NCBI GenBank assembly: GCA_963662455.3
Contig: OZ224042.1
Span: forward strand, 2,446,953-2,510,952
Length of the DNA stretch: 64,000 nucleotides
Source: Acidimicrobiales bacterium
GTDB taxonomy: Bacteria > Actinomycetota > Acidimicrobiia > Acidimicrobiales > Aldehydirespiratoraceae
Direction: 5' to 3'
A model generated the notes under the pieces. It did no database searches. It saw nothing but the letters and a program-made list of their open reading frames with translations, and was not told where the DNA came from. Numbering within the stretch: position 1 is the stretch's first letter; each line of letters starts with the position of its first letter. The position numbers and the translations under genes were made by a program. This document shows, one piece after another, positions 14,953 to 35,039 of the stretch.

Positions 14953-16715
14953 TGATCCGCCTGGGTTTCGGCTGGAGTATGTATCTCAGCACCCGGGAAG
15001 GCCTCGGCAAGGAGTTCGACTACTTGATCGGTGTGAGACCCCGCGTCAATGAGCGTGTCCAAGTCCAAACCGTCAGCGTCATCCACCGGATCGACCACTG
15101 CGATTTCGCTGAGCTCATCCTTGTTTGATTCTGTTTCGATGAACGGAACACTTGGAGTTTCAGAGAGCAGGTCAACGCTTGTCGGTGACGCAACTTCGGG
15201 AGAACCGTCGACAGCAGAAGAGTCGTCGTCGGGAGAACCCTCAGCAGCATCAGCGGGAGTTTTGCGAACCGCTTCAGGGCCGAGATCATCGACTAGTGCC
15301 CTCCACACTCTCTGCAGATCCGCACTTGATCGCTCACCATGCTTCGGGCCGAGAATCTCATTCGCTTTCGCGATCACCAAGTCGCGACCCAAAGAGAGGT
15401 GCTGACCAGCCAAAGCAACTACTTCTTTCGCGGTCTTCGGTTCTAATGATCGAATGTCTTGTTCGGGAAGGGGTCTCGCCGCAGCGGCGGCAACGGGTGG
15501 CGGGGGCGGCAATCTCGGAGTTGCGGGTGGCGGAACGGGTTGGGCGACTGGAGCGGTCACCACGTCCGGAGTGGCCTGGGGGGCCGCCGCAGTCGACGCA
15601 GACGCAACACCTGCAGCGAGGCGCGCTTCAAGTTGTTCGATGCGCTCAAGCAACGAATCGACCGTCACGTCGTTGGTAAATCGACACAGCCGAACCAGCG
15701 CTACTTCAAGTTGAACACGCGGATCGGGCGCCTGGCGCATATCCACGAGAGCGGAACCCAAAGTCTCCAGAGCCCGTGTGAACTGTGCCGGAGACATCTG
15801 GTCGGCAACTTCAGCAGCTCGTGCTTGTTCGGACACAGTCGCACGCGGTGGTGGTGCATCCATCCGAGTCAAGAACGCGTCTCGCAAGCCTGCGAGCAAC
15901 ATCTCACCAATGGTCCGGGGATCGCGGCCGCGACCCATAGCCTCACCTACCGCGCTCAGCGCACCGGCTGTGTTGTGATCTGCCAGTGCCTGAATCAGTT
16001 GATCGGTCGACTGATCGATCTCAACGGCCCCGCCGGCGGCCACTACCCTGTCGAGCGCGCTCAACGTGTCACGGACCGATCCTCCACCTGCCGAAACCAC
16101 ATAATCAACCGCATCGTCGTCTACTTCAAGCGCAGCGTCCTCGATTATCCAATGCACATGGGCGGTCATCTCCTGCGCCCCGAGCAAACTGAGTTCAAAC
16201 ACCTGGCAACGACTGCGGATCGTCTCTACAACCTTGTGCGGTTCGGTCGTGGCAAGCACCCAAACCACATGACCGGGTGGTTCCTCAAGGGTTTTGAGCA
16301 GAGAGTTCTCCGCTCCCCTGGTCAACATGTGAACCTCGTCAAGGATGTAGACCTTCATCCTTCCCGGGTTGCCGAGGTTGACCTTGCTCAACAGGTCACG
16401 CATGTCTTCGACACCGTTGTTGCTTGCGGCGTCGAGTTCATGCAGGTCGAAAGAACGACCCTGCTCAATAGACACGCAACTGTCGCAACTGCCGCATGGT
16501 TCAGAGTCCTCGCCAAGACGTTCGCAGTTGAGAGCTTTGGCGAGGACCCGCGCGGAGCTGGTCTTGCCGGTGCCTCTCGGGCCGTGGAACATGTAGGCGT
16601 GGCCCACTTTGTCTGTCGCCACGGCATTCCGTATGGCAGTGACAACATGGGTTTGACCACGGATCTCAGAGAATTTCTGTGGTCGATAACGTCGGTAGAG
16701 GGACTGATAGGCCAT
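14949..16715 (-). CDS. dnaX: DNA polymerase III subunits gamma/tau
   Basis: 588 aa. [24 protein letters not shown] (Walker A), YILDEVHML, and a zinc module (CGSCDSC). Its stop overlaps the recR start by 4 nt. Confidence 0.95.
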
Positions 16716-17147: not shown

Positions 17148-18431
17148 TTACGGGCCGAGCGCGGTGATGGGTGCGACGGTGACGCCGTCGGGTCGCTGGT
17201 AGGCGGCGGTGCCGAACGCGGTCACGATGAGGTGTGCCGCAGGAGGCAGTCTGCGAGAGGTGTCGATGCTGCGGGTCGCGGCCAGCAGCTTCGCAGCGGC
17301 TTGGTCCAGCATCTGTTCGTTGCCGCCGAGCTTGACTTCCACGGCGACCCACCGTCCGTCGCGTGCCTCGAGCACGGCATCGAGCTCGCCGCCGCGCTGG
17401 GCTTGGTGATGGAACACCGCGACGTCGCCGGCCTCGCAGTACACACGCAGGTCGCGCACGGCCAGCGATTCGAACAGCAGACCCAGCGAACGCATGTCGC
17501 GGGCGAGCCGGTCAGGCCCTATCCCGAGCGCGGCGGCCGCGAGCGACGGATCAGCCAGGTGCCGCTTCGGCGACTGACGGGCCGGGCGCCCCGATGCCAT
17601 GTGCGGCGACCACGCCGGGAGATCGTCGAGAACGAAGAGGCGCTCGAGGGCGTCGAGGTAGCGGCTGACCGTCTGGTGGTTCAGCCGTGCCCCGTCGCCG
17701 GCGGTGTCTCTCGCCAGCGATGCCTGGGAGGCGGTGGTGGACACGTTGCGTGCCAGCGACCGCAGCAGCCTTCTCACCTTCACCGGGTCATGGGAGGTCC
17801 CCGTCTCCGCTGGGAGGTCGACGCGTGCGGTCTCCTCCAGATACGCCACGAGCAGGTCCTGGCCGGCCTCCGCAGCCAGCCCGACATGGCGGGGCCATCC
17901 ACCCCGGCAGATCAACTCCGCAAGGCGCCGGGCGTCGATCTGCGGAGCGAGCGCGGCAGCAGCCTCTCCCGCGAGCAGGCCGGCCACCGATACCTGCCCG
18001 GTGGCATAGCCCAGTTCGTGAAGCGACATGGGGCGAAGCCGAATGCGCATGAGGCGGCCGGCTCCTGAGTGGCGGGTTACGGCATCCGCCCGCGAGTAGG
18101 AACCGGTGAAGATGAACTTGCCCGTGGCGGCGTCCAGGTCGGAAATGCCCCGGGCGGCGTCCCAGACCTCGGGTGCGCGCTGCCACTCGTCGACGAGCTT
18201 GGGCCGATCGCCGTCCAGCAGCACCTCACGGGTGATCGTGCGGGCCGCACTGAGAGCGTTGGCGTCCTCGGCCAGCATCATCTTGCTGCGAGACCGGCTC
18301 AGCCCGAGCCACGTCTTGCCGCACCCCTTGGCGCCTTCGATGAGGACCATCGGCGCCGTGCTGAGCGCCCGGTCCAAGCGCGTGCCGGCGATGCGAGCGA
18401 CGTAGCCGTCTGGCTTGAGGAGATCTGCCAT
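17148..18431 (-). CDS. AAA-type ATP-binding protein of the AAA_14/DUF4143 architecture
   Basis: 427 aa. Walker A-like GAKGCGKTW. The C-terminal region (GGELDAVLE...RWVAVEVKLG) resembles the restriction-endonuclease-like DUF4143 module. Confidence 0.8.
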   Translation of the reverse strand: MADLLKPDGYVARIAGTRLDRALSTAPMVLIEGAKGCGKTWLGLSRSRSKMMLAEDANALSAARTITREVLLDGDRPKLVDEWQRAPEVWDAARGISDLDAATGKFIFTGSYSRADAVTRHSGAGRLMRIRLRPMSLHELGYATGQVSVAGLLAGEAAAALAPQIDARRLAELICRGGWPRHVGLAAEAGQDLLVAYLEETARVDLPAETGTSHDPVKVRRLLRSLARNVSTTASQASLARDTAGDGARLNHQTVSRYLDALERLFVLDDLPAWSPHMASGRPARQSPKRHLADPSLAAAALGIGPDRLARDMRSLGLLFESLAVRDLRVYCEAGDVAVFHHQAQRGGELDAVLEARDGRWVAVEVKLGGNEQMLDQAAAKLLAATRSIDTSRRLPPAAHLIVTAFGTAAYQRPDGVTVAPITALGP

Positions 18432-19837: not shown

Positions 19838-20938
19838 ATGGGAAGAGAGAGCGAGCTCTTGGGGGCTCGCGTGGCCGCCACTCGACGCGATGCAGGCCTC
19901 ACACAAGAGGAGTGCGCGGCGCGCGTGGGGATTGCTCGCAGCGCCTTGGCCAAGGTCGAGACCGGCATGCGCGGTATCAACGCGATGGAGTTGGTCCGGC
20001 TCGCGCAAGCACTGGAGATGCGTGTCGAGTGGTTCTTCGAAGATGCCCCTCAGGCCGTGCTGTCGAGGCGAAACGCCGCAGAGCCGGGTGCTCCCAGTCC
20101 GAGCGTGGACCTCTTCACCGAACGGATCACGCGGGAAGTCGAGTTCCTCCAGCGATTAGGTGAGCTTGAGTTGGCTGAAACACCCGCAATCGCGTTCCCC
20201 AAGACATCCGAGGAAGCCGAGCAAGCAGCGGCCAAGACGCGACGGCAGCTGGGATACGACCATGAAGAGCCCGCGACCGCACTGGACACGCGTGCATCTG
20301 ATTTAGGTCTGCTCACCTTCTCTTGGGAGTTCGGCGAGAGCGGAGCCGATGGGGCATCCGTCTTGTTGACCTGCGGGGGTGTGGCGGTTGTCAACGGCAG
20401 CTTCGGGACCGGCCGCCGACGCTTGACGCTCGCCCACGAGTTGGGCCACTACGTCTTTGGTGACGAGTATTCCACGGACTGGCGTGTGGCCGAAGCCCCT
20501 GCTGCTAGAAAGGAGGGCCGCATAGACTGGTTCGCGCGTGCATTACTCCTGCCGGCTGCGGCGTTGCGGGACCGCTGGAGCGGAGGCGATGACACCCGCG
20601 TCAACGCGGTGCGCTTGGCCAGCGAATACCGTGTGGACATGTCGACCCTGGCACGGCGGCTGCAAGAACTGGGGATCGCGTCACCCCAGGAGGCGGCAGT
20701 GGTACGCACAACGAGTACGCGTCAATCCGACATAGTCGAACTCGATTTGATCGTCGCCGACGAACTCTTACCGCCGTCGTTGCCTGATACCTATATGAAG
20801 GCGGTGCTCAACCTGTATCGCCGTGAGGAGATCTCTGCCGCCCGCGCCCTGGATCTTCTGTTGGATACTTGGCAAGAGGACGACCTCCCCGACCTTCCCC
20901 CGCTTCCCGCCGACGCTGTCTGGTCATTCGTGTCCTGA
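19838..20938 (+). CDS. XRE-family HTH fused to an ImmA/IrrE (M78) zinc metallopeptidase domain
   Basis: 366 aa. The N-terminal HTH is RRDAGLTQEECAARVGIARSALAKVETGMRGI. The HEXXH motif lies in LAHELGHYVFGDEY. Confidence 0.85.
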   Translation: MGRESELLGARVAATRRDAGLTQEECAARVGIARSALAKVETGMRGINAMELVRLAQALEMRVEWFFEDAPQAVLSRRNAAEPGAPSPSVDLFTERITREVEFLQRLGELELAETPAIAFPKTSEEAEQAAAKTRRQLGYDHEEPATALDTRASDLGLLTFSWEFGESGADGASVLLTCGGVAVVNGSFGTGRRRLTLAHELGHYVFGDEYSTDWRVAEAPAARKEGRIDWFARALLLPAAALRDRWSGGDDTRVNAVRLASEYRVDMSTLARRLQELGIASPQEAAVVRTTSTRQSDIVELDLIVADELLPPSLPDTYMKAVLNLYRREEISAARALDLLLDTWQEDDLPDLPPLPADAVWSFVS

Positions 20939-20962
20939 GCGGGCACCGTTCCGTTTCGCAAC

Positions 20963-21499
20963 ATGGACGCCTTCGTGTTCGACGCCGGCCCGCTGGCGCA
21001 CTTCGCGCGTGCGGGTTGGCTCGGCGTACTCAAATCACTGGTCGGTTCAAGCCGAGTCATCATTCCCGAAGAGGTCGTTTCGGAACTCAAATCGGCGGCA
21101 CGCTACGAGCACGCCATGGCGGCGGTGCTCGACGCAACCTGGATCGAACACCATGAGCTACGCACCGAAGCGGAGTTGTCTGCGTTCGGGAAGTTCGCCT
21201 CCCAACTCGTATCCGGGGAACGTAACGTGGGCGAGACGGCAGTGCTGGCAATTGCCGCGACAATGCCAGCGCAGGCGGTATTGGACGATTCCGTCGCCCA
21301 CAAGGTCGCGCAGAAAGCAGGACTCTCCTGCAAGCGCACCCTCGCTCTACTCTGTGAGGCAGTCCATGACGGCCTGTTGACGGCTGAACTCGTCAGCGAC
21401 ATAGCCGATGACCTCATCGAGACCGAATACCGGCTTCCGTTCGCCCCCGGCGAATTCATCCGATGGGCAGCCTCGCAAGGCCTCCTTCCTCCACAGTGA
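20963..21499 (+). CDS. PIN-domain protein (DUF3368-like predicted nuclease)
   Basis: 178 aa. FVFDAGPL...VIIPEEVVSEL...GETAVLAIA...AVLDDSVAHKVAQKAGL places the acidic residues in PIN-like order. It starts 24 nt after the XRE-ImmA gene. Confidence 0.7.
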   Translation: MDAFVFDAGPLAHFARAGWLGVLKSLVGSSRVIIPEEVVSELKSAARYEHAMAAVLDATWIEHHELRTEAELSAFGKFASQLVSGERNVGETAVLAIAATMPAQAVLDDSVAHKVAQKAGLSCKRTLALLCEAVHDGLLTAELVSDIADDLIETEYRLPFAPGEFIRWAASQGLLPPQ

Positions 21500-21581: not shown

Positions 21582-22304
21582 CTAGCTCGGCAACGAGGCG
21601 AGCTGGTCGTCAGTTAGAAACAAGAAACGTCTGAGCAGACCGCTGAGCCTCTTACCTTCGCCCTGGGCTGGCCCCAGCGTCCACAACCTGACCAGGAATC
21701 GTGCCACTCGTTGCAGGATCGCGGTCTGAGTCGCCGCAAGGTGCGGATACCAGCGTCGGCTCCACTGCGCAGGGTCGGACTGCATGAGTTGGAACCACTC
21801 TGGGTCTTCCTCGTGGATCGCCTTCTCCAGCGTGTCCCACCTACGCATCGGGTCATCTGCTTGTGAGGAACTGTCGAGCAACACATTGAGGTTGTGGTAG
21901 CGCCCTCCGGCACCGAACTCCCCGAAGATATCGAGCATCTCTCTCAGATGCTTGTCCGAGGCACAGAAGTCAATGTCAGCCTGGAGCGCTGGTCTCTGCA
22001 TCAGGTCCATGTCGGCCCTTGCCTTGGCGAGAACGTCGTCAAGCAGCGGCAGAAGACGATGGCCGTACTGCTTCTTGAAAGCCTTCGAGGAGGGGTGGCC
22101 ACCTTCGGCGTAGAGGATCAGCGTCATAGTCAGCTTCAACAGTCGCTCGAAGCCTTGCGACAGGGAGAACAGGCCACGAATCCTGTTGTCTTCGCCACCG
22201 TCCCATTCCGCGATGGAGCGGATGCCCTCATCCAAGAGAGTGATAGCCGTCTCGGTCTCCTCGATCAGGGAGAAGCGCTGGTCGGTGGTCAAAGCGCTCT
22301 GCAC
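21582..22304 (-). CDS. hypothetical protein (alpha-helical; possible HEPN-like)
   Basis: 240 aa with normal composition. It contains YGHRLLPLL and an R-x4-H string (RRWYPH). No firm family assignment. Confidence 0.55.
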   Translation of the reverse strand: MQSALTTDQRFSLIEETETAITLLDEGIRSIAEWDGGEDNRIRGLFSLSQGFERLLKLTMTLILYAEGGHPSSKAFKKQYGHRLLPLLDDVLAKARADMDLMQRPALQADIDFCASDKHLREMLDIFGEFGAGGRYHNLNVLLDSSSQADDPMRRWDTLEKAIHEEDPEWFQLMQSDPAQWSRRWYPHLAATQTAILQRVARFLVRLWTLGPAQGEGKRLSGLLRRFLFLTDDQLASLPS

Positions 22305-22666: not shown

Positions 22667-23236
22667 ATGTCATATATTTTGGCTGAGCAACCTCTTCCCA
22701 CCCGGCGACGCATCGACTTCGCATCGGTGACTGGGTTCTTGAGCGCCACCGCGGGACTCATCGCGCTCATCGTCGAGATAAACGTTCGCGGCTGGTGGGG
22801 ATTGGCGATCTCGTGGGTGGACATGCTCGTCTTGGTTGTATGGCTCAGCCTGACAGGATGGCTCTCCAGCTGGGCGTTCGATAACGCCGAGGGTTGGTGG
22901 CACATACCCTCCTTCCTGGGTGCCGCAGCGTCGGTGATCGGTCTGGCGTTTCTCTTGGTGCTTGCTGTCATGTGGCTCGTCTCCGAGCACCCGGACATCC
23001 TCAACGATGACTCTAAGCAGAAGCGGAACGGCCAAAGGAACAGACGACGGCGAACAACAAGCTCGCGGCGACGACCCTCAGCCCCAGAAACACTCACGGG
23101 CGCCGCACTATGGTTTCTGCTGGCAACAGTTGCAGCAGTGGTGCTGCTGGTGCTTGGTGTGCTCGATGGCCTCTCTGCTTGGGCAGGTGAAGTCCTAGCT
23201 GACCTTGTTGTAGGTTTGCTCGAACAACATCAGTGA
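22667..23236 (+). CDS. hypothetical integral membrane protein (about 4-5 TM segments, Arg-rich loop)
   Basis: 189 aa. Hydrophobic segments include FLSATAGLIALIV, LVLVVWLSLTGWL, AAASVIGLAFLLVLAVMWLV and ALWFLLATVAAVVLLVLGVL. Confidence 0.6.
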   Translation: MSYILAEQPLPTRRRIDFASVTGFLSATAGLIALIVEINVRGWWGLAISWVDMLVLVVWLSLTGWLSSWAFDNAEGWWHIPSFLGAAASVIGLAFLLVLAVMWLVSEHPDILNDDSKQKRNGQRNRRRRTTSSRRRPSAPETLTGAALWFLLATVAAVVLLVLGVLDGLSAWAGEVLADLVVGLLEQHQ

Positions 23237-23708: not shown

Positions 23709-25097
23709 CTACCAGTAGACGGCGATGATCTCTACGTCCAAGAACCGCACCGGGGCGCCAACGCGCGTCGAGGTCGATACCCGACCCGGGGATCCGCTTG
23801 AACCTGGAAGGTCCAGCCCCGCGTCGAGCACGGCCGCCGTTCGCAGGTGACAGGCTGTCTCGGGTGAGGTCGTCGCGCTAAGTGCTGAGTCGACACGGCG
23901 AGTCACTTCCGCGAGGACTGAGCGACGGCCGTCAACTGTCTCGATCCAGCCAGTGGGCCACTCAGCGGCAGCGACCAAGTCCGTCACCTCAGCGGAGTCA
24001 GGTTCTCGGCCGTGGCTTTCCACCAGCATCGTGACGTAGCGCCGGAGCAAGGCGTCTCCCCCCTCTCCTGCGAGCGAATGTGGTTGTTGCGACGCATCTA
24101 CGGCCTCCTCCATCGCATGGAGGGCGGTCTCGCCCAGATCTTCGATCTGTTCGCCAAACACGGGGTGGATGTTGTGGAGGACATCCATGAGCTTGATTGG
24201 GTGCCACCGGTCTTGGAGGCCCTCGCCGCCAAGCCTGCAGAAGACGGTGAACCGGCTGCCTGAGAAAAGGACACGACGGATGTCTTTCCAGAAAAGGTCC
24301 CGTTCAGCGACACCGACCACGACAACATCGGAGAGCGCTGCGTCTCCCGGTTCGTCAAACTGGTCGAGGACATCACGGTGGACCAAAAACTCCTGATCAC
24401 CGATCTCCGCTACTCTGAAGTCGACGAGGGATCCGCGAATCGGAACGAGGTCGGCTAGAAGGCTCTCGAGCAGCCGGCCGATCGACCGCATCTCTGCCAG
24501 CTGGTCAACGTTCTCATGACTGAACAGCTGCAAGTTCTCTTCCAGGATCTCGCGGATGGTCGTGATGATTGCACTGACACGGAAGATCGGGTCTGCCTCG
24601 AGAACGACCTCAACTTCAATGAGATTTCCACGGCAGAGCGTGTGCGGATCGATGACATAGCCCGTAGAAAGGTGTGACTCGAGGTCCCGTTCGAGTTCGG
24701 AACGACTTCGCACGTTGGGGATTCCCGAGTTGTCGCGTGAACCAGCCAACCCGAGCCTTGGTTGTTCGAGGTCGTGGAGTTCTTTGAAGCTCGTCTGGAC
24801 GATCGCCTTGCGGAGCACTTGTGAGGTCCGCGACTGGGTCGCCTCGATCCGTGACTTGACCTCTGCTCTGGTGACCCCGAAACCACCGCCCATTGAGCCG
24901 CCGACTTCGCTGTTCAGTGAAGCGTTCTGACTCTCGCTAAACTCGGTCGCGATGGCTCCCTTACGGGAAGCAAGCAGGCTGTAGACGGATACCTCGTCGA
25001 GGTACACAAACTCGCGGGGAGTTCCCGGTCGTTCGCTCGCCTCTCGCGTCTGACCTCGTCGGTGCCGCCAGGCTCGAAGGCGCTGAAGGGGGCTCAT
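23709..25097 (-). CDS. hypothetical protein, partner of the upstream AAA+ ATPase
   Basis: 462 aa and soluble-looking. I recognise no motif. Its ATG overlaps the ATPase stop (ATGA at 25094-25097). Confidence 0.75.
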   Translation of the reverse strand: MSPLQRLRAWRHRRGQTREASERPGTPREFVYLDEVSVYSLLASRKGAIATEFSESQNASLNSEVGGSMGGGFGVTRAEVKSRIEATQSRTSQVLRKAIVQTSFKELHDLEQPRLGLAGSRDNSGIPNVRSRSELERDLESHLSTGYVIDPHTLCRGNLIEVEVVLEADPIFRVSAIITTIREILEENLQLFSHENVDQLAEMRSIGRLLESLLADLVPIRGSLVDFRVAEIGDQEFLVHRDVLDQFDEPGDAALSDVVVVGVAERDLFWKDIRRVLFSGSRFTVFCRLGGEGLQDRWHPIKLMDVLHNIHPVFGEQIEDLGETALHAMEEAVDASQQPHSLAGEGGDALLRRYVTMLVESHGREPDSAEVTDLVAAAEWPTGWIETVDGRRSVLAEVTRRVDSALSATTSPETACHLRTAAVLDAGLDLPGSSGSPGRVSTSTRVGAPVRFLDVEIIAVYW

Positions 25098-26275
25098 GCG
25101 GCAGACTTGGCCTTCGTGGACCGACTCCCGATACGCTCGCGCTGCCGCTCAACGCGCTCGAATCCACCGAGGTAGTCCTCAACGAAGATGGCGCTTCGGT
25201 CGTCCGCTACAGCGAGTAACGCTGACTCGCTCCAGATAGCTGCCAGCTCGGCCGAAGACCAGCCGTCCGTCTTGGCAGCCACGAACTCGTGCGGCAGCGG
25301 ATCCTGCGTCTCCAGGCCCCGAGCGGTCTTGATGAGGATGTCCAATCGGTCCTCCACGCTCGGAAGAGGAAACTCGATCTCCCAATCAAACCTCCCAGGT
25401 CGGCGGAGGGCGACATCCAAGTCCTGCGGCCGGTTGGTCGCGGCGATCACCACGACGTTGCTCGTCGAGCCAAAGCCATCCATCAGGGTAAGCAGCTGGG
25501 CCACCACTCGCCGGCTCGCTTCGTGAGCGTCGTCGTCCCGCTGGGCTGCCACGCTGTCGATCTCGTCGAAGAAGATAATGGCCCTCTCATCCTTCGCCGC
25601 AGCATCGAAGATACGTCGTAGGAGTTCTTCGCTTTGCCCATACCACTTGCTAAAAATTTCAGGCCCCGAGATCTCAAAGAACGATGCGTCCGCCTGGGCC
25701 GCAATGATCCGAGCCAACATCGTCTTGCCGGTACCCGGCGGGCCTGTAAAGAGCACGCCCTTGATTGCGCGTGCTCCGATCTTGGCCAATTCTGCTTGTC
25801 GCTCAAGCGGTAGCTCGATCAGCTCGCGTGCACGCTTCACTACAGAACTCAACCCACCGAAGTCGTCGAAGGTGAGCCGTTGATCAGAATTACCTTCGGT
25901 TCGGAATCGATTCACAACCTCCTCGTCGATCGCTGGCAGCTCAATGTACTTAATAGGTTCTTCTGAGAGGACGCGGATGACCCCTCGGACCTCCCCCGCC
26001 TCAACGGTGTTACCGACCTCATACTCAAGATCCGCTTGCGTTGGAACCTTCCGGTACCGACCGCTCGCCTCAATGACTGTGACATCGTCTAACTTGATCT
26101 TGACGACACCGACCCATAAGTCGTCAGGCCACGCGCTGGCATCGACCCGTTCCGCGCTTTGGCCGGGACCTTCACCCGAGATCATGATCACGTCATCGGC
26201 ATCGAAGCCATGCCCCGTCCTGGTCAAACCAACCGCTGTTGCCGTTACGGAGATCGAAGAACACCCTGTCAGCAC
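25094..26275 (-). CDS. classical-clade AAA+ ATPase (Cdc48/FtsH-like single AAA module) with a ~150-aa N-domain
   Basis: 393 aa. GVLFTGPPGTGKTMLA (Walker A), AIIFFDEIDS (Walker B), VIAATNRPQDLDVALRRPGRFD (second region of homology). The annotated start is a GTG, so the start is uncertain. Confidence 0.9.
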   Translation of the reverse strand: MLTGCSSISVTATAVGLTRTGHGFDADDVIMISGEGPGQSAERVDASAWPDDLWVGVVKIKLDDVTVIEASGRYRKVPTQADLEYEVGNTVEAGEVRGVIRVLSEEPIKYIELPAIDEEVVNRFRTEGNSDQRLTFDDFGGLSSVVKRARELIELPLERQAELAKIGARAIKGVLFTGPPGTGKTMLARIIAAQADASFFEISGPEIFSKWYGQSEELLRRIFDAAAKDERAIIFFDEIDSVAAQRDDDAHEASRRVVAQLLTLMDGFGSTSNVVVIAATNRPQDLDVALRRPGRFDWEIEFPLPSVEDRLDILIKTARGLETQDPLPHEFVAAKTDGWSSAELAAIWSESALLAVADDRSAIFVEDYLGGFERVERQRERIGSRSTKAKSAA

Positions 26276-26579
26276 TGACTCCGGTCACGCGTGCGAGCAT
26301 TCCTGTGTGAATCGTGGTCTCGGTCACGGGGGTTCTCCACCTGCACTTTCTGCTGGTTTCAGGTTAACGACCTCGACTGACAAATTACAGCGTTGAAAGT
26401 ACTCGTCGTCCGAGTCCGTTTGCTCGGCGTTGGCCTCCTCCCGCCTCGCGTCGATGACCGGGCAGGACATGGCCGTAGGTTGAAGGCAAAGGCGATCACT
26501 TCGACGAGGACGAGTGAGCGCAGATGGCAATGGCATGTGGGCCGAACCCGGCGTCACACGGCAGCGTTATGGTGGGGTG

Positions 26580-27235
26580 ATGTCGAACTCGCTCGATCTC
26601 ATCGGCTTGAAGGCCGCGGCTGCCGAGTTCGCCGAGTCACTTCGCGACACGCCGATCCCCGAGTTGTTCGGCACAACGGACGGCAAGGCGCTGGGCACCT
26701 GGATCGAGGCGAATTTCAACGAGTTCCTCGCAGAGCGGCACGCGTACAGCCCTGGAAACGCGGCTCGCGGAATCGACTTCCCGGAACTGGAGGTTGATCT
26801 CAAGGCGACATTCATTAATCAACCCAGTCATCGTGCCCGTTCCGCGACGCGTCGCAGAAGATCTTCGGGCTGGGCTACGACCTGCTCGTGTTCGTGTACG
26901 AAAAGAACGACACACACGAGACCCAGTCTGCGGTGATCGATGTTCGCCACGCGCTGTTCATCGACCGGTCGAGAACCGGCGACTACCAGACGACGAGTGG
27001 AATCCTCGAGATACTCGACCGAGGCGGGAATATCGATGACCTCGTTGCCTTCATGGAGGACCGAAATCTGCCGTTAGACGAAATTGGCCGCGCGGCCTTG
27101 GCCGAACGAGTTCTCAGCGACCCCCCGACACAGGGCTACATCACGATCAGCAATGCCCTTCAGTGGCGGCTCCAGTACAACCACGCGATCAACAACGCAG
27201 GAGGGGTCGGCGGTGTCCAAGACCTCCTCTCGTAA
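26580..27235 (+). pseudogene. type II restriction endonuclease-like gene (PD-(D/E)xK) interrupted by a 1-nt frameshift
   Basis: From ATG 26580 the frame reads ...GIDFPELEVDLKATFINQ and then turns to Arg/Ser-rich nonsense. Frame -1 resumes as TQSSCPFRDASQKIFGLGYDLLVFVYEK... and runs to the stop at 27235. The shift maps to the C-run at 26823-26825. Confidence 0.6.
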
Positions 27236-28826
27236 GGAACTCGGCGACTTCCAAACACCTTGGGAGCTCGCGGTCGAGTGCACTCAAGTCCTAGCGACGA
27301 TCCAGCGCGGAACGCGCCGGGTGCTGGAACCGACGTGCGGTGAGGGGAGCTTCATGCTCGCTGCGGCCTCGGTCCTCGAGCCGTCCATCGAAATGTTGGG
27401 AGTGGAGATACAACCCAGCCATGCCGAAACCGCCCGCTGTCGACTCAATGGCTCTGACACCAGAGATGTTACGTGGCGAGTTGAGGTGGGCGATATGTTC
27501 CGGCACGACTTGGGCAAGCTCCAGTGGGAGACGGACGGGCCACTGCTGGTCCTCGGGAATCCGCCGTGGGTCACGTTGTCCGACCTCGGCGCGATGGACT
27601 CGATCCAGATCCCCGACCGCACCAACCTGCGTTCCGTTCGGGGGATAGATGCGCTTACGGGTGAGTCGAACTTCGACGTCGCCGAGTACATCTGGATGCG
27701 GCTCCTGACGGAATTGCGTCAACAGGAGCCTACGGTCGCGCTTCTTTGCAAGACTTCCGTCGCACGCCGGGTTCTCACGTTGGCAGCTCACCTGGATCTA
27801 CATGTGGCTGATTCGTTCCTGTGGCGGATCGACGCGAAGAAGTCGTTCGGGGTAGCAGTCGACGCCTGCCTCTTCGCTGTTCAACTCGATGGAGCAAGCC
27901 GCAACTACCGTTGCCAAGTCTTTGAGTCACTCGATGCGAGCCGTCCGACAAGCACCATGGGATTGGTGGGTGGGGCTCTCGTTGCCGATGTGGATGCTCA
28001 CGCCGTGGCTCGGCAATACGACGGGTCGTCGCCAGTGCAGTGGCGGCAAGGCGTCAAGCACGATTCAGCAGCCGTGATGGAGCTTCGCACTGACGAGGGC
28101 GGCAAGCTCCACAACGCGCTCGGCGAACCCGTCGAGGTCGAAGACGACTGGGTGTATCCGCTTCTCAAAGGTTCAGATGTGAACGCGGGCCGGCCCCCAG
28201 AACGTTACGTGGTCGTGACTCAGCGATCGCTGGCAGATGAGACGAGGAGCCTGCGACACACAGCACCCATGCTCTGGAGCTACTTGCAGACCCACGCTGA
28301 ACGGTTCGCTGCCCGCAAGTCGTCGATCTACCGAAACCGACCGGCCTTCTCGATGTTCGGCATCGGGCCGTACACATTCGCGCCGTGGAAGGTCGCAGTG
28401 TCGGGCCTCCACAAGACTCCTAGGTTCCATCTCGTAGGTCCGAGCGAGGGCCGGCCGGTCCTATTCGACGACACGTCGTACTTCCTGCCGTGCGAATCAG
28501 CGGCCGAGGCAGCCGTCCTTCTCAGTGCGCTGACGAGTGGAGCCGCAACCCTCCTCCTCAAGTCGTTGCTGTTCACTGACGCCAAGCGACCGGTGACGAA
28601 GAAACTGCTGCAGCGCATCGACCTCGCCGCCATTCTTCGCGACGACCGTGCCCGAGTCGAGAGGGGCGCGCAGGACGCTCTCGAAAAGGCCGGTCAGCAC
28701 CTGGATGCCAGGGCGATCACTCAAGAATCCGACCAACTCCTGCAGCAATGGAGCGGGACTCAGGACACCCCGCCACTATTCAGTGTCACCGACACTGCCC
28801 CACTCGAACCCGCCGCGTCAGCCTGA
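27213..28826 (+). CDS. gamma-class N6-adenine DNA methyltransferase (Eco57I/TaqI-like)
   Basis: Start taken as GTG 27213, preceded by GGAGGGG, and it overlaps the endonuclease gene end. GDFQTPWELA, motif I VLEPTCGEGSF, motif IV LVLGNPPWV. Confidence 0.85.
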   Translation: MSKTSSRKELGDFQTPWELAVECTQVLATIQRGTRRVLEPTCGEGSFMLAAASVLEPSIEMLGVEIQPSHAETARCRLNGSDTRDVTWRVEVGDMFRHDLGKLQWETDGPLLVLGNPPWVTLSDLGAMDSIQIPDRTNLRSVRGIDALTGESNFDVAEYIWMRLLTELRQQEPTVALLCKTSVARRVLTLAAHLDLHVADSFLWRIDAKKSFGVAVDACLFAVQLDGASRNYRCQVFESLDASRPTSTMGLVGGALVADVDAHAVARQYDGSSPVQWRQGVKHDSAAVMELRTDEGGKLHNALGEPVEVEDDWVYPLLKGSDVNAGRPPERYVVVTQRSLADETRSLRHTAPMLWSYLQTHAERFAARKSSIYRNRPAFSMFGIGPYTFAPWKVAVSGLHKTPRFHLVGPSEGRPVLFDDTSYFLPCESAAEAAVLLSALTSGAATLLLKSLLFTDAKRPVTKKLLQRIDLAAILRDDRARVERGAQDALEKAGQHLDARAITQESDQLLQQWSGTQDTPPLFSVTDTAPLEPAASA

Positions 28827-29283: not shown

Positions 29284-31851
29284 CTAGGAGTTTGATGTCT
29301 CTCTGGTGGCGGTCATCTCCATGCCGGTGACGGTTACCACCTTGACTGCAATTCGTCCTCGCTCGGGCGGGTCGAACGGTGCGGAGCGCATCGCGGTGAG
29401 GGCTTCCTTTTCGATGTCGTCAGCGTTCTTGCCCAACTCCTTCAGCAGCTTCTTGATCTGGCGATCGTTGGCAGCTCCGGGGAAATGGATGCGTCGGGCG
29501 TAGAAGCTCTCACCGTCATGGTCCGTGTCGAGCATCCAGCAGGCCACGTCGTCGGGGCCTCCATCGGAGGCGTTGCCGGTGGCCGGGTCGAAGGTGTCGT
29601 AACCGCTGACCTCCACGGCTATCTGGCCGCCGGGGCAGTCGCCAATGATGCGGATGTCAGGTTCCCCGACAATGACGAAGGCCTCGTGACCGGTTTCGGC
29701 TGACAGTTCGCGGATCATCAGGTCTCGGTTCATCTGCGCTCTCGCAACGGTGATACGGCCGACCTTCGCTGGAGCGTCGGCGGCGTACGCGTACGCGACC
29801 ACCAGCAGCACTTCGGCTCGCTCGTCGCTGTCGGTTATCTCTCGAGCTGCCTCGCGGATCATCTCGCCGGGCACGGTCACATCCTCGGCGGCGACCATGA
29901 CCGCAGCAACATGTTCCGCTGCGCCTCCGTCAATGGTGTAAGTGGCTTTCCATACAAGCAACTCGGAGTAGACCGGCCACGGTTCCAGAGCGCGGATGGT
30001 CATGTCGGCGCTGGCGCGTCCTCCGCTGATCGTGTGGTTCAACAGAGCCGCCTCCACAGCTTCGGAGAAATGGCCGTGAGCGACCACCATCTCATCGTCG
30101 GAACCTTCCAGGGGGATGACCGTCGCCCAGGGTTGCTCGCTCTCCACGGTCATCGGTGAGGTCACGCGAGTCACGCCACGTTTCTTGCGTGGCTGATCTA
30201 CGAGCAGGATTGGGTCAGGGTCAAGGTCGTAGGCCAAGACGCCGGCCGAGACTTGGGGGACGCGTTCGTAGACGAGTCCTTGGGCGGGGTCGTTTGCCCA
30301 TCCGCCCTCGGGTGGGGGAGCTTCGGGATTGCCGGAGAGTTGTGCTTCCAGGCGCGCGCCGTTTACCGAGTCAGCCAGTGTCCAGTAGGGGAAGGTCGCG
30401 GTTGAGAGCCGTTGGCGTGCGATTGACACGGCGACTGGCGAGGTGTCACAGGTAATCCAACGCCGCCCCCATTTCTCAGCGGCTATCGCAGTAGTGGCTC
30501 CACCGCACGTCGGGTCGAACACAAGGTCGCCAGGGTCAGTGGCCATGAGAACGCATCGCTCAATCACGCTGTCCGCTGTCTGCACTACGTAGCGTTTATC
30601 TGACGCGTAGGCCTGTTGGTGCCACATGTTGTTGATGCGCCGCCCAGGAACCTCGTTCTCGTATCGCTTCCAACGGAGCGCAGAACCCGGCCCGGCAGCG
30701 TCTAAGCGGTTTAGCTCCGCGAGACGGTCCATACCCTCCATTGATACACGCCACTGCTCACCCGCTGGACAGGTCCAGGCCTGCCCTCTCCAAGAATACG
30801 GGTCCGAGCGCCCTGTGGTTGAGGCACCAGGTGACGTGAGTGCCACGCGGCTATAGAGCCGCGAACCGTCAGGCAAGTGCGAATCTGGGTCATCCCTCTC
30901 TTCGGGAGTCAGAGCGCGGGTCTTCGCGTCTTCAAGTTCAACCATCGCGTAAGAACTCATATGCGCGACCTTCTCAGCGCGAGTGAGCGGTTCGTAGAGT
31001 TGGTGGTACTTGGACTGTCGTTTGTCCTTCGCGTACCAAAGCAGGAAATCTGCAACGCTGGGCAGCGTCTTGGACGATGAGCCGCTCGTGGTTGCAAAGG
31101 GGATGAGAGATACGCGGTTCTCTGCTCCGAACACTTCATCCAACAACAGTCCAACTCTCAGCACATTGTCGTCGCCGATCTGCATGAACAACGAACCCGT
31201 GTCGGCCAACAGTTCGCGCATCAGGATGAGTTTCTCGCGGGTTAGGTCCAAGTAGGAGTGAATGTTGCGTTCATAGGTGTCCCGGAAGGCGCGGATCGTA
31301 CGAGTGTCTAGCGGGCGGCCCTCGGCGGATTCGGGTGTCCTGTCCTTCTGATTGATAGATACCTGGAAGTTGGACTTGTAGCCCATCCCGTAGGGCGGGT
31401 CGAAGTAGACCATCTGGACTTTGCCCGTCATGTTCTCGCGTGCGAGCAGGGAGGCCATCACTCGGGCGGATTCTCCGTGTATGAGCCGGTTGGACCAGTT
31501 GGCTGCGTGCTGATACCACTCGTAGGCGGCGTCCGGGGAGGGCAGGCCGTTGAAGTCGCTGAAGAGTTGTGGCTGGTCGCCGCCGCCTTGGAGCAGTTTC
31601 ACGAAAGCGGCTGGGTGGACCTTCTCACGCACATACAGCGGATGCGCGGCGTGACCGTCTTGGTTGGCGGGTTGACGGTTCCACGCAAGGATGGGCTCGT
31701 CGTCCACCTCACGGGTCTGGGGCTGGTACAGGATCGGGCGACGGTCGGTTTCGCTCATCGTCTTGCTGGTCTGCTCAGTCGGCAGGTTGACGCGTTTGGC
31801 TGAGGGGTGCGTGTACTGGTCGGTGGTCTTGGCGCTGGCTCGTTTCGCCAT
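29284..31851 (-). CDS. type III-like DNA methyltransferase (Mod; beta-class N6A/N4C, DPPY) with long C-terminal extension
   Basis: Start taken at ATG 31851 (MAKRASAK...), which overlaps the Res stop (TGATG). Motif IV is VQMVYFDPPYGMGY. Motif I is GDLVFDPTCGGATTAIAAEKWGRRWITCD. Confidence 0.9.
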   Translation of the reverse strand: MAKRASAKTTDQYTHPSAKRVNLPTEQTSKTMSETDRRPILYQPQTREVDDEPILAWNRQPANQDGHAAHPLYVREKVHPAAFVKLLQGGGDQPQLFSDFNGLPSPDAAYEWYQHAANWSNRLIHGESARVMASLLARENMTGKVQMVYFDPPYGMGYKSNFQVSINQKDRTPESAEGRPLDTRTIRAFRDTYERNIHSYLDLTREKLILMRELLADTGSLFMQIGDDNVLRVGLLLDEVFGAENRVSLIPFATTSGSSSKTLPSVADFLLWYAKDKRQSKYHQLYEPLTRAEKVAHMSSYAMVELEDAKTRALTPEERDDPDSHLPDGSRLYSRVALTSPGASTTGRSDPYSWRGQAWTCPAGEQWRVSMEGMDRLAELNRLDAAGPGSALRWKRYENEVPGRRINNMWHQQAYASDKRYVVQTADSVIERCVLMATDPGDLVFDPTCGGATTAIAAEKWGRRWITCDTSPVAVSIARQRLSTATFPYWTLADSVNGARLEAQLSGNPEAPPPEGGWANDPAQGLVYERVPQVSAGVLAYDLDPDPILLVDQPRKKRGVTRVTSPMTVESEQPWATVIPLEGSDDEMVVAHGHFSEAVEAALLNHTISGGRASADMTIRALEPWPVYSELLVWKATYTIDGGAAEHVAAVMVAAEDVTVPGEMIREAAREITDSDERAEVLLVVAYAYAADAPAKVGRITVARAQMNRDLMIRELSAETGHEAFVIVGEPDIRIIGDCPGGQIAVEVSGYDTFDPATGNASDGGPDDVACWMLDTDHDGESFYARRIHFPGAANDRQIKKLLKELGKNADDIEKEALTAMRSAPFDPPERGRIAVKVVTVTGMEMTATRETSNS

Positions 31852-34800
31852 CACGCTGCTCCTTGCTCGGCGGGCTTTGGATGTTCGGCTCGGGCCACTC
31901 TGATCGCGGCGCTCAGATCCGCTGACAGGCCCTCGGGCTCGTCCAGTTCCACGAACGACCATCGCCGCAACCACATCGGTAACTGCAGCGATGACTGCAC
32001 TGCCGGTATCCACCGGTTCGTGATGGACTGTTTCTTGCGTTCGCTCTGGTCATCGGGCACGCCTTTGCACTCGATGATGAGATGCACAGCGTCGGCGTCC
32101 TCGTGTTCTGCAAAGAGGCGGGCCACAAAATCGGGTTCGTATCGGTGCCAGGTGCCTTCCCACAGGTAGGGAACGCTCCAATCGAGCCGGAAGTTGCGTG
32201 CCCAACTGGTCACGTCAGGGTGTTTGTCAAGCGCTCTGGCACAGGCCGCTTCAAAGTGCGAGTGGCAGGCCGCGATGTTCAGTTCCGAGTTCTTGGTGAT
32301 GTGGCGATCCGAGAGGCTGGTCTCATACCTGACGCTGGAAGTGTCCAACACTGCCGGATGCGCGAACGCTGCTACAAGCCGGTCTTGTGCGCCGTCCGTG
32401 GTCTCGCACGCGTCGTCTATCTCCTTGACGGCCTGGTCCAAGTTGCTTGACCCGAGTCCGTCGTAGTGAAATTCGTTGACCTCTGCAAGAAATGTCCAGA
32501 GCCTGACGATTCTGATGGCGTCGTAGAACAACAACCGTCGTCGCGCGCGCCACCCCTCGCCGTCGTCGGCCATCCTTTGGCTCCAGCGTCGCACGAGCCC
32601 GGCAGCGAGCCGGGTGCGGGTCTGCTGCTCACGCATGTTCGCTTCCGCACTGATGGTCCTGGTGTCTCCGACCGTCCCTGCCAGCACAGCTTCCTTGGCT
32701 CCGCGCGGCACCCATTCAATGACCCGCTCGGGGTTCAGCTGGAACCCGCCGGCTCCGGGTTCTGTGAGGTACTGCTCCACGTTGGGGAACTCGATTCGAT
32801 GGTTGCGTCGTCCAGAGACGCTGTGAACCCAATACCGGGGTTTCGGCGGTTCAGGGCTGTCTCCAGGGTGTTTGACCGGCATGAAATCAAACGGAACGCC
32901 GATGACCTCTGCATACTCCGCGACAAGCCTGCCTTCGTCGTCGTAGTTGTCATAGTTGGAGCGTCGCAGAGCACGGCCCGTGACCTGCTCGCACAACAAT
33001 TGCGTGGAGAACGCCCGGTATCCGAGGATGTGGGTGACGGTGCGGGTGTCCCATCCCTCCGTGAGCATCTGGACTGACACCACGCAACGAATGTGCTCAC
33101 CGAGACCCCCCGGCCTACCGACCGAGTTCAACGCGCCGCGCACGATGTCGCGGTCATCACGGTCGTCGCCGGGGAGCTTCAACCGGCCGGCTTGTGCCTT
33201 GACGGCTCCGCTGAGGCTGGCCTCCCCTTCAAGCTGGGAATGGACCAACAACGTGTGGACGCGTTCAGTCGGACCGTCGGCACGGTAGTTGGCGAACAGA
33301 TCACAGGCTCCCTCGTGATGCTCAAGTGAGCCATCGGGGCGCTTCTCCGACCATCCCGCGATGTGATCCGCGACAGCACTGGCATTGGCGATGTTGTTGG
33401 CCACCACGATGAATACCGGAGGTGTGGGCATCGTCTTGTCCGGATCATCCGGATGCATCCACTGGTTGAACTTCTGTTCATAACTGTTGTACAGCGCGGT
33501 GAGCGCACGGTTCAGTTCGGCCGGCACCGCACCGCGTCTGACGGTCTTGGGAGTCGTACTGGCGTAGAGGTTGCGCCACTTGACGCGCTCGCTCGCGGAA
33601 TCATCATCGACGGGCACCTGCGGAATCTTGACCAGACCGGATTCGATGCTGTCCATCAGCGGGAAGTCCGAGACCACCCAGGGGAACATCCGCTCCCGGC
33701 GGTCAGTGCCCTCAATAAAGATCGGCGTGGCGGAGAAGTCATAGACCGGGCCGAGCCGTTCCGCGTCGCGTAATCCCTCCAGAGCTCCAAACCAGATCGC
33801 TGCAGCCTTGACATCGTCGTCTTCTGCTGTGCGCCGACCGGCTTCGGGCAGATAGCAGTGGTGAGCTTCGTCGTTCAGCACGCACACCTTCGGTGCGCCC
33901 TGCCCCGTCGGGAACCCACGCAGCACCCGGTCGAGAACCGCCGACATGGATTCAAGCTCCGGGGTCCTCCCAGCTCGCAGCAGCTTCTTGGCGTCGCTCG
34001 ACGCAGCAGACAGCCGGTCCCGTCGCTGGAACGCTTGGAAGTTCAACACCTGGACCTTGACCGCTCCCAGCGCGCTGCGTTTGCTCTCCGGCAGCAACCG
34101 CATCTCGTCATAGACGTTCTCGGGGTGCGCCGGACGCAGCACCGCGAGACGCTCGCGGACAGTATGACCCGGAGTGATCGCCAAGAAGCAGGTGGTGTAT
34201 CGCCCATCACGGCGCTGCGACGCGGCCGCGTTGACGGCGTGCCAGGCAATGACCATACCCATCACCGCGGTCTTCCCCGTACCGGTGGCCATCCTCACCG
34301 CGAGACGGCTGATATCGCTGTTGTAGTCTCGGTTCGCCTCCGCCAAGTCTCGTCGAACGCCAGCGAGCACCCTGTCCCGGCTTGCGTTGGCCTCGGTCAG
34401 CCAGATGAGGGTCTCGGCCGCCTCCACCTGCGCGAAGAACAGCCTCGGGTCGTTGGCCTCGCTACGCCAATGCCACAAGAGTTGTCTCGTCGCGGAAGTC
34501 GCCCCCGGATAGTTCGCGTTCCTCCACCCCGACACTGCATCACGGATGCGGTTCACCAGCTCGTTCTGCTCCGCCGCGGTCCCCGTCCCCTGCATCCGCA
34601 ACTGCGTACCCCGCTCCTTGGGCACAATCACGAGCGCCTGGCTCAGCCGCCTCCCTTCGATCGCCACTCCCGTGGACGTATTGTCCTCCGCCAACTCCCA
34701 GTGACGCGAAGGCTCCTCATGAGGCCGATTCAGAACCGGTTGGCTGACATGGTCCAACGGCCGTGCAGCCGGCGCCAGGTTGCCTCTCTCCGCGGCCACC

Positions 34801-35039
34801 GAAACGTCGTCAACCGAGTCACCTGCAGTCGCCTCCGAGGTCACCGGGCTACACCGTCCGTCACGTTGCTGAATGGGGAAGTCGAACTCGCACAACGCGC
34901 TACAGGCTAGTAGCAGCCCGTGACACCGTGCGTGGTTTCGCCCTGCTGTAGTTACCGACAGGTCCACTTGGCCTCTTCGGTCGCAGACGACGCACTCGTG
35001 ACCGTCAACCGGTACGACTGACATCGCAACCCGCTTCAA
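31851..35039 (-). CDS. type III restriction Res-like SF2 helicase with C-terminal PD-(D/E)xK nuclease; true start probably ~34757-34799
   Basis: MATGTGKTAVMG (motif I), VLNDEAHHC (DEAH), TEGWDTRTV...QVTGRALRR (motif VI). The C-terminal YEPDFVAR...HLIIECKG is the nuclease motif. The family-typical N-terminus PVLNRPHEEPSRHWE begins ~95 codons into the ORF. Confidence 0.85.
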   Translation of the reverse strand: MKRVAMSVVPVDGHECVVCDRRGQVDLSVTTAGRNHARCHGLLLACSALCEFDFPIQQRDGRCSPVTSEATAGDSVDDVSVAAERGNLAPAARPLDHVSQPVLNRPHEEPSRHWELAEDNTSTGVAIEGRRLSQALVIVPKERGTQLRMQGTGTAAEQNELVNRIRDAVSGWRNANYPGATSATRQLLWHWRSEANDPRLFFAQVEAAETLIWLTEANASRDRVLAGVRRDLAEANRDYNSDISRLAVRMATGTGKTAVMGMVIAWHAVNAAASQRRDGRYTTCFLAITPGHTVRERLAVLRPAHPENVYDEMRLLPESKRSALGAVKVQVLNFQAFQRRDRLSAASSDAKKLLRAGRTPELESMSAVLDRVLRGFPTGQGAPKVCVLNDEAHHCYLPEAGRRTAEDDDVKAAAIWFGALEGLRDAERLGPVYDFSATPIFIEGTDRRERMFPWVVSDFPLMDSIESGLVKIPQVPVDDDSASERVKWRNLYASTTPKTVRRGAVPAELNRALTALYNSYEQKFNQWMHPDDPDKTMPTPPVFIVVANNIANASAVADHIAGWSEKRPDGSLEHHEGACDLFANYRADGPTERVHTLLVHSQLEGEASLSGAVKAQAGRLKLPGDDRDDRDIVRGALNSVGRPGGLGEHIRCVVSVQMLTEGWDTRTVTHILGYRAFSTQLLCEQVTGRALRRSNYDNYDDEGRLVAEYAEVIGVPFDFMPVKHPGDSPEPPKPRYWVHSVSGRRNHRIEFPNVEQYLTEPGAGGFQLNPERVIEWVPRGAKEAVLAGTVGDTRTISAEANMREQQTRTRLAAGLVRRWSQRMADDGEGWRARRRLLFYDAIRIVRLWTFLAEVNEFHYDGLGSSNLDQAVKEIDDACETTDGAQDRLVAAFAHPAVLDTSSVRYETSLSDRHITKNSELNIAACHSHFEAACARALDKHPDVTSWARNFRLDWSVPYLWEGTWHRYEPDFVARLFAEHEDADAVHLIIECKGVPDDQSERKKQSITNRWIPAVQSSLQLPMWLRRWSFVELDEPEGLSADLSAAIRVARAEHPKPAEQGAA

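Follow-up and report, generated by a model that had tools for sequence, protein, structure and literature searches.

A PAN/Cdc48-type AAA+ ATPase coupled to a DUF6414 protein: a candidate defence pair distantly related to Dodola

A coupled gene pair in a defence-rich stretch

What kind of system is encoded by two adjacent genes of an Acidimicrobiales bacterium, one for an AAA+ ATPase and the other for a protein of 462 amino acids (aa), and does it belong to a system that already has a name? The two genes lie in a 64,000-nucleotide stretch of contig OZ224042.1, hereafter called the window. As the first-pass annotation of the window proposed, the ATPase and its partner are translationally coupled and make up one module within a defence island. 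Both minus-strand open reading frames (ORFs; 393 aa and 462 aa as listed) are present, the ATGA overlap joins them (Table 1), and the pair and a type II restriction-modification (R-M) module are divergently oriented within a defence-rich stretch. With somewhat better than even confidence, we regard the two genes as a copy of a two-gene module that occurs widely, moves horizontally, and is a distant and unrecognised relative of Dodola. The module is probably anti-phage.

The partner is a DUF6414 protein

No motif could be assigned to the 462-aa protein in the first-pass annotation. This part of the annotation does not stand: residues 28-333 match DUF6414 (PF19952) in Pfam with E=5.7e-45 and 154.7 bits, where the cut-off is 25, and the search against DUF6414 that had been suggested for this protein is thus positive. 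The same domain is carried by all 120 homologues among the matches listed. The most conserved part of the protein is the segment of residues 28-110, which holds REFVYLDEVSVYSLLAS and VLRKAIxQTSFKEL flanking a variable Gly/Ser-rich loop at residues 58-91. In a structure model of the partner this segment is the least confidently folded one; residues 123-335 are modelled as alpha/beta, residues 346-425 as helical, and the C-terminal end as a beta strand. A profile of the partner finds nothing meaningful among the sequences of the PDB.

The terminus A-[ILVM]-Y-W-COOH is found in 71 of the 74 full-length partner sequences, from bacteria and archaea alike. Among them are the haloarchaeal and Corynebacterium partners, whose overall identity is as low as 22-25%; the terminus was also noted at L081, L082, and L083. 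Formally, this terminus fits the hydrophobic-Tyr-X (HbYX) docking motif of proteasomal ATPases, yet it sits on the partner and not on the ATPase. A membrane or pore-forming role of the partner was rejected for want of a hydrophobic segment. The LFWKD residues were also considered as part of a PD-(D/E)xK nuclease site, which was rejected on the grounds of spacing and conservation.

The ATPase resembles PAN, Rpt, and Cdc48

The ATPase matches PF00004 in Pfam with E=3e-45, and AAA_lid_3 (PF17862) reaches 25.5 bits, just under the Pfam cut-off of 27.2. A single classical AAA module had been read from the sequence, and PF00004 is indeed found together with Walker A and B, the pore loop, and the arginine fingers. 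Also in agreement with the first reading, neither protein has a protease domain (Pfam) or a membrane segment (hydropathy); the highest 19-residue hydropathy average of the ATPase is 1.37. Walker A and B, the pore loop, the DGF inter-subunit motif, sensor 1, and the second region of homology with its two arginines are invariant or nearly so in 40 family members, and this is the motif set of a classical-clade AAA unfoldase. Note that an aromatic-hydrophobic-Gly pore loop is the motif of AAA unfoldases that thread their substrates.

The profile of the ATPase scores 255 and 223 bits against the D1 and D2 domains of Cdc48/p97. In the predicted model of an intact ATPase homologue (pLDDT 80), beta strands at residues 10-61 and 71-121 precede the AAA core and the lid. 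The best Foldseek matches of this model are PAN and the Rpt subunits of the proteasome, with E ~1e-27 and alignments that take in 335-400 of 410 columns. Because these alignments extend beyond the AAA core, the N-terminal region of the ATPase probably corresponds to an OB ring. This N-domain is conserved among the ATPase homologues, and in the profile search residues 1-146 match no sequence of the PDB. The model predicts no coiled coil, and the C-terminus is variable, ending in ...KAKSAA, without HbYX. An Rpt/PAN-like predicted fold with an intact pore loop, lacking a coiled coil and having a variable C-terminus, points to a hexameric substrate-threading unfoldase.

Conservation and distribution of the pair

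A scan with the family alignment, covering one genome per GTDB species, gave 144 relatives, and 79 loci were fetched (counts of 80 include the window, L001). An ATPase homologue is found directly upstream on the same strand in 79 of the 80 loci, and the lone exception is truncated by the end of its contig. The same order, ATPase and then DUF6414, exists on six plasmid loci from haloarchaea, Corynebacterium, and Novosphingobium. Plasmids of Rubrobacter marinus (NZ_CP045122.1, ~207-209.7 kb) and Streptomyces californicus (NZ_CP070262.1) have intact pairs. When the look-up is anchored on the ATPase, a DUF6414 gene follows immediately downstream in 3/3 cases. With a recurrence at essentially all related loci inspected, the pairing goes far beyond what chance would give. 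The NTGA overlap is retained in 53 of 73 evaluable loci. Furthermore, the two proteins co-evolve: over 62 loci their pairwise identities are correlated with a Mantel r=0.85, and none of 500 label permutations exceeds 0.19. Two ATPases share 53% identity on average and two DUF6414 partners 35%, which shows that the partner diverges faster.

The family is large. A profile search of 1.84 billion representatives gives 747 clusters (50% identity) at E<=1e-3, of which 493 are at E<=1e-30. The best 150 profile matches all belong to the same clade; most are 450-470 aa long, and the others are shorter and apparently partial. The hosts include Actinomycetota (Acidimicrobiales, Solirubrobacterales, Streptomyces, Nonomuraea, and Rubrobacter), Chloroflexota, Acidobacteriota, Alpha- and Betaproteobacteria, and Ignavibacteria, so that the module spans at least five bacterial phyla in addition to the haloarchaea. 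A sponge-associated lineage (Candidatus Poriferisocius) is among the related metagenome-assembled genomes (MAGs). No relatives are found in phage genomes (tblastn) or in viral contigs (scan).

Within Acidimicrobiales the partners are 74-81% identical. The partner of L008, a Dehalococcoidia MAG, is 81% identical to that of the window, which is about as much, and such similarity of a Dehalococcoidia copy to an Acidimicrobiales copy indicates horizontal transfer of the module. It further suggests that the exchange between the lineages of L008 and of the window was recent and took place possibly in a shared habitat.

Relation to Dodola

The first-pass annotation listed Dodola as one possible type for the pair. 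Dodola (DolA/DolB) reportedly goes back to Millman et al. 2022. It is described as a DUF6414 protein together with a ClpB-related protein, and it is experimentally anti-phage, protecting B. subtilis and S. thermophilus. The S. thermophilus pairs are WP_084825723.1/WP_084825722.1 and WP_002948184.1/WP_002948183.1. The likeness to the pair of the window is considerable. Both consist of two adjacent co-oriented genes in defence islands, one of which carries DUF6414; the other gene encodes a single-module AAA+ ATPase with an N-domain of ~150-170 aa. There is also a weak alignment of the PADLOC DolA model (model positions 8-96) with the motif region at the N-terminal end of DUF6414, although in PADLOC this model is matched by only 7 of 106 diverse relatives, with E=0.006-0.1 and over the N-terminal ~80 residues.

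The differences concern both proteins. The ATPase of the pair belongs to the classical clade (PF00004/PF17862), whereas DolB is ClpB-like (PF07724/PF10431). The DefenseFinder assignments follow the same division, with dolB carrying PF07724/PF10431 and ietA carrying PF00004/PF17862. In the window ATPase, PF07724 reaches 22.9 bits, under its cut-off of 27, and PF10431 is not found in Pfam. The PADLOC DolB model (PDLC03838) is matched at E<=0.01 by none of 39 family ATPases (0/39); haloarchaeal ATPases touch it solely at the P-loop (E=5e-6 to 9e-5). The partner has 462 aa and is thus ~200 aa longer than the 258-position DolA model, having an extra helical C-terminal region and the A-[ILVM]-Y-W terminus. 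Hosts differ as well: validated Dodola was found in the literature from Firmicutes, while the pair is found mainly in Actinomycetota, Chloroflexota, Acidobacteriota, Proteobacteria, and haloarchaea. Here the ATPase gene comes first; the canonical order is presumably dolA and then dolB. In tblastn searches of plasmids and of phages with the DUF6414 proteins of the window and of haloarchaea, the relatives retrieved are AAA-linked only, and no Firmicute Dodola is among them.

Judged by these domain models, the pair is no clean fit to Dodola. It might nevertheless be simply Dodola as recognised by broader models (e.g., the DolA/DolB hidden Markov models of DefenseFinder), those of PADLOC being narrower. 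The strong DUF6414 match of the partner agrees with this, as the literature defines Dodola as DUF6414 plus a ClpB-related AAA+ protein. Dodola is also reported in Euryarchaeota by a DefenseFinder-based survey, and all haloarchaeal DUF6414 loci that we found are of the AAA type; the weak matches to PADLOC DolA, and to DolB for the haloarchaeal ATPases, fit too. However, the Pfam domains of dolB are not those of the ATPase in the pair, for which PF07724 stays below the cut-off, and the family ATPases that miss DolB all match IetA (39/39). PADLOC detects canonical Dodola but does not call the pair, and the partner is far longer than the DolA model. We consider it unlikely that the pair is simply Dodola.

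The earlier proposal of a Dodola-type system thus holds for the homology of the partner to DolA/DUF6414 and not for the rest, as the ATPase is no ClpB-like DolB and the partner misses the PADLOC DolA model. Likewise, the "new pairing" that the first-pass annotation offered as the other outcome amounts to a separate branch of the Dodola kind that has gone unrecognised, and not to a wholly new system. The resemblance to Dodola is readily recognisable to a specialist. The PAN/Cdc48-type motor, the invariant Y-W at the end of the partner, and the wide spread of the clade offer a concrete route to a mechanism. The clade further suggests that DUF6414 proteins generically work with an AAA+ partner whose clade is exchangeable.

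This branch, with its 747 clusters in Bacteria and Archaea, is invisible to PADLOC. Because the clade is large, occurs in both domains, and escapes PADLOC, it is probably being missed when defence genes are annotated in Actinomycetota, Chloroflexota, Acidobacteriota, and haloarchaea. It also ties DolA/DUF6414 to threading unfoldases of the PAN/Cdc48 type, which are very well understood as motors.

A possible mode of action

If the locus is such a distant relative of Dodola, the following mode of action may be proposed. The ATPase is a soluble single-module unfoldase of the PAN/Rpt/Cdc48 type, and the second, coupled gene encodes a DolA-like DUF6414 protein. The two proteins would form a complex, in which the hexameric ATPase would thread or remodel a protein substrate using ATP. 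The substrate may be the DUF6414 partner itself, engaged by its conserved flexible Gly-rich N-terminal segment. Or it may be a phage protein that the partner recognises or presents. In either case the remodelling would block phage propagation. Specificity or the effector function would lie with the faster-evolving DUF6414 protein, while the ATPase would serve as the conserved engine.

A more comprehensive picture can be drawn, which we regard as speculative and rather doubtful. The module would be an immune module of Bacteria and Archaea with a PAN/Cdc48-like unfoldase as its engine and a DolA-like partner as a latent sensor or effector, engaged via its flexible N-terminal segment and/or its Hb-Y-W tail. 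The Dodola of Firmicutes would then be a derived branch into which a ClpB-like motor has been swapped. Were this true, it would provide the first mechanistic handle on Dodola-type immunity, with unfolding being either the antiviral act or a switch for activation.

Defence context, mobility, and decay

To what extent do the surroundings of the module fit a role in defence? The 134 nearest flanking ORFs from ~70 other loci were surveyed with PADLOC and Pfam. Strong matches to varied PADLOC systems are found, each in one or two loci: HmaA, GajB, DrmA/DrmD, BrxH, AbiEi, AbiTii, type II, III, and IV restriction enzymes, CBASS-type and SAVED effectors, ZorD, and mad2/mad8. Pfam adds integrases, recombinases, and transposases. 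Individual loci have RES, HEPN, GmrSD, OLD-like ATPases, a DNA methylase with Vsr, DUF1156, or an integrative element with a TrwC relaxase.

The module is also repeatedly broken. Insertions of the IS3 family interrupt the ATPase gene in L042 (4084-5292) and the partner gene in L063 (4788-5648), and an ISL3 insertion interrupts the partner gene in L069 (4757-5995). L019 and L024 have nonsense or frameshift mutations in the module, and L003 and L045 are also among the interrupted copies. The two genes are disrupted at roughly similar frequency, amounting to ~8-10% of the loci overall. Variable context, mobility, and recurrent decay are as expected for an accessory defence module.

The same mobility could indicate that the pair serves the maintenance of mobile elements or protein quality control (addiction, exclusion, or a chaperone function) and hitch-hikes in these islands with no antiviral role. 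The pair does occur on plasmids and on integrative elements that carry relaxases and integrases; at some loci the neighbours are housekeeping genes, and the phage collections hold no relatives. Classical AAA unfoldases are commonly proteostasis factors. Yet the immediate neighbours are mostly diverse bona fide defence systems and not genes of conjugation or replication, and the sole characterised DUF6414 system is anti-phage. In addition, disrupted copies of each gene are found next to an intact copy of the other, contrary to the dependency of a strict toxin-antitoxin pair; a strict toxin-antitoxin model was rejected for this reason. A maintenance or quality-control module thus appears quite improbable.

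The reading of the locus as a distant Dodola relative with an anti-phage role has several points against it. The ATPase gene is frameshifted in this copy. Some of the neighbours at other loci are housekeeping genes (RNR, ApbE, and PheT), and the neighbour counts are plain tallies with no formal genomic background. The AAA-DUF6414 clade is known from sequence alone; its anti-phage role, the complex of the two proteins, and the threading of a substrate are what we infer. The distance to Dodola is judged from PADLOC and Pfam models alone, and at E<=1 the window partner matches none of the PADLOC models, DolA (PDLC03837) included. The structure model of the partner is mediocre (pLDDT 63.8), and a fold search with it against the PDB and BFVD gives nothing below E=0.1, because of which no biochemical activity can be assigned to the protein. 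Nor does the literature searched offer a mechanism for canonical Dodola.

Relation to ietAS and to proteasomal ATPases

Two further AAA systems need to be compared with the pair. In ietAS, which is said to come from Gao et al. 2020, two genes are also found, one of which encodes a classical AAA ATPase (PF00004 with AAA_lid_3). If the pair were an ietAS-type system, as the first-pass annotation allowed, the subtilase would have been exchanged for another effector. Besides the shared Pfam pair PF00004/PF17862, the IetA models are the best PADLOC matches of the window ATPase (6e-35), and all 39 family ATPases match them, down to 4e-38. These matches, however, cover the AAA core alone (residues 147-374 in the window ATPase), and the ATPase scores 104 bits against the NCBIfam IteA equivalog (NF042959), whose cut-off is 510. 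IetA has an FtsH-like extracellular or membrane N-terminal region. The ATPase of the pair, in contrast, has a soluble double beta module as its N-domain, with no membrane segment, and PF06480 is not found in it by Pfam. The partner of IetA is a subtilisin-like protease, while that of the pair is a DUF6414 protein and no peptidase. Membership in ietAS fails on the equivalog cut-off, on the N-domain, and on the partner; from these sequence comparisons it is effectively refuted, and an ietAS type with an exchanged effector is very improbable.

The other comparison is with PAN, the Rpt subunits, and Cdc48/VAT. The AAA core is closely similar in sequence and fold, an OB-ring-like beta region precedes it, and the pore loop, inter-subunit motif, and arginine fingers are intact. 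In contrast to these proteins, the ATPase of the pair lacks a coiled coil, a C-terminal HbYX, and a second AAA domain, and it is paired with DUF6414 in mobile defence islands instead of being a housekeeping protein. Its scores against the NCBIfam PAN models are 205-234 bits, where the cut-offs are 500-750; the matches start at residue 52 (Pan2) or at residues 114-129 (others) and include the AAA core and some of the N-terminal region.

A pair consisting of a PAN-like ATPase and a partner that docks to the 20S proteasome by a hydrophobic-Tyr-X tail might be imagined from this kinship, all the more as [ILVM]-Y-W-COOH at the end of the partner (71/74) is formally HbYX-like. 20S proteasomes exist in Actinomycetota and haloarchaea. 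The pair is, however, common in Chloroflexota, Acidobacteriota, Alpha- and Betaproteobacteria, and Ignavibacteria, most of which have no 20S proteasome. The C-terminus of the ATPase itself is variable without HbYX, the PAN models remain far under their cut-offs, and the C-terminus of the partner is modelled as a beta strand and not as a free tail. An accessory pair of the proteasome is hardly credible. A relation to TRIP13 of CBASS was rejected, as the matches are restricted to the AAA core and there is no HORMA partner.

A frameshift in the ATPase gene of the window

In an alignment with its homologues, the window ATPase misses a conserved N-terminal stretch. The frame just upstream encodes VTETTIHTGMLARVTGVSADRVFFDLRNGNSGWFDQDG and ends at a stop at 26193. 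When one G is deleted from the GGGG run (Table 1), both frames merge into a single ORF of 410 aa. This restored ATPase is 88.5% identical to the homologue P0122 (410 aa) over residues 1-410 without a gap. The ORF boundary given by the first-pass annotation was therefore wrong: the one-nucleotide frameshift was missed, the real start is the GTG at 26327, and from the frame comparison with P0122 the first 21 residues of the 393-aa ORF are spurious. The part hit by the frameshift is the first beta module of the N-domain.

As sequenced, the ATPase gene of the window is interrupted. The extra G is either a recent inactivation or a sequencing error in a homopolymer of what appears to be a 3.73-Mb MAG contig. 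A programmed frameshift was rejected because no homologue requires one.

Table 1. Features of the gene pair and of its surroundings, with window coordinates
Feature	Coordinates	Strand	Basis or remark
AAA+ ATPase ORF as listed, GTG start, 393 aa	25094..26275	-	ORF list
AAA+ ATPase gene, PAN/Cdc48-type, single classical AAA module	25094..26327	-	410 codons after removal of one extra G; frameshifted as sequenced
True ATPase start codon, GTG	26325-26327	-	Homologue alignment and upstream GGTGGAG
Shine-Dalgarno-like GGTGGAG	26335..26341	-	Sequence; 7 nt 5' of the true GTG
GGGG run with 1-nt insertion	26213..26216	-	ATPase frame broken after codon 38
ATPase N-domain, ~residues 10-146 of 410, two small all-beta modules, OB-ring-like (predicted)	25889..26300	-	Homologue alignment, model
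Walker A, GPPGTGKT	25721..25744	-	Invariant in 40 sequences
Pore loop 1, SKWYG (aromatic-hydrophobic-Gly)	25637..25651	-	Family alignment
Walker B, IIFFDEID	25556..25579	-	Family alignment
Second region of homology, arginine fingers RRPGR	25391..25405	-	Family alignment
ATGA stop/start overlap, 4 nt	25094..25097	-	ATPase stop and partner start; translational coupling
DUF6414 (DolA-like) partner gene, 462 aa, intact	23709..25097	-	PF19952 E=5.7e-45
Most conserved DUF6414 motif, REFVYLDEVSVYSLLAS, residues 28-44	24966..25016	-	Alignment; in the segment weakly aligning to PADLOC DolA
Conserved LFWKDIRR motif, residues 268-275	24273..24296	-	Alignment
C-terminal A-V-Y-W	23712..23723	-	Terminus kept as A-[ILVM]-Y-W-COOH, Actinomycetota to haloarchaea
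DnaX, housekeeping edge of the stretch, adjoins PDC-S01 gene	14949-16715
PDC-S01 candidate, AAA_14 + DUF4143 ATPase	17148-18431	-	PADLOC 3e-62
RmrA-like HTH + ImmA-type peptidase gene, then PDC-S70 candidate	19838-21499	+	RosmerTA RmrA models 3e-17
240-aa ORF, no Pfam or PADLOC match	21582-22304	-
189-aa ORF with hydrophobic stretches, no PADLOC match	22667-23236	+
Type II R-M, divergent from the pair	26514-28826	+
Type III R-M, 909-aa Mod + 1062-aa Res-like	29284-35039	-	MTase_III 4e-147 (Mod)

Neighbouring genes in the window

The other genes around the pair are listed in Table 1. The PDC-S70 candidate is a protein of 178 aa without a Pfam match; together with the RmrA-like protein it resembles a RosmerTA-like antitoxin/toxin pair. 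The 240-aa and 189-aa ORFs sit between this pair and the 3' end of the DUF6414 gene.

A second frameshift is found within ~700 bp of that of the ATPase gene, in the adjoining type II restriction endonuclease (26514-27235, plus strand), which is split over two frames. Its pieces are 26514..26936 and 26888..27235, and the second piece matches positions 103-214 of the 220-position REase_II model. The frame changes near 26830-26850, where there is no long homopolymer, and the methyltransferase downstream is seemingly intact.

In the type III R-M system, the 1062-aa protein matches type III Res weakly (ResIII 2e-4, REase_III 1.6e-6). As listed, the two type III ORFs overlap by ~160 nt, and the start of Mod, listed at 32013, is therefore probably later.

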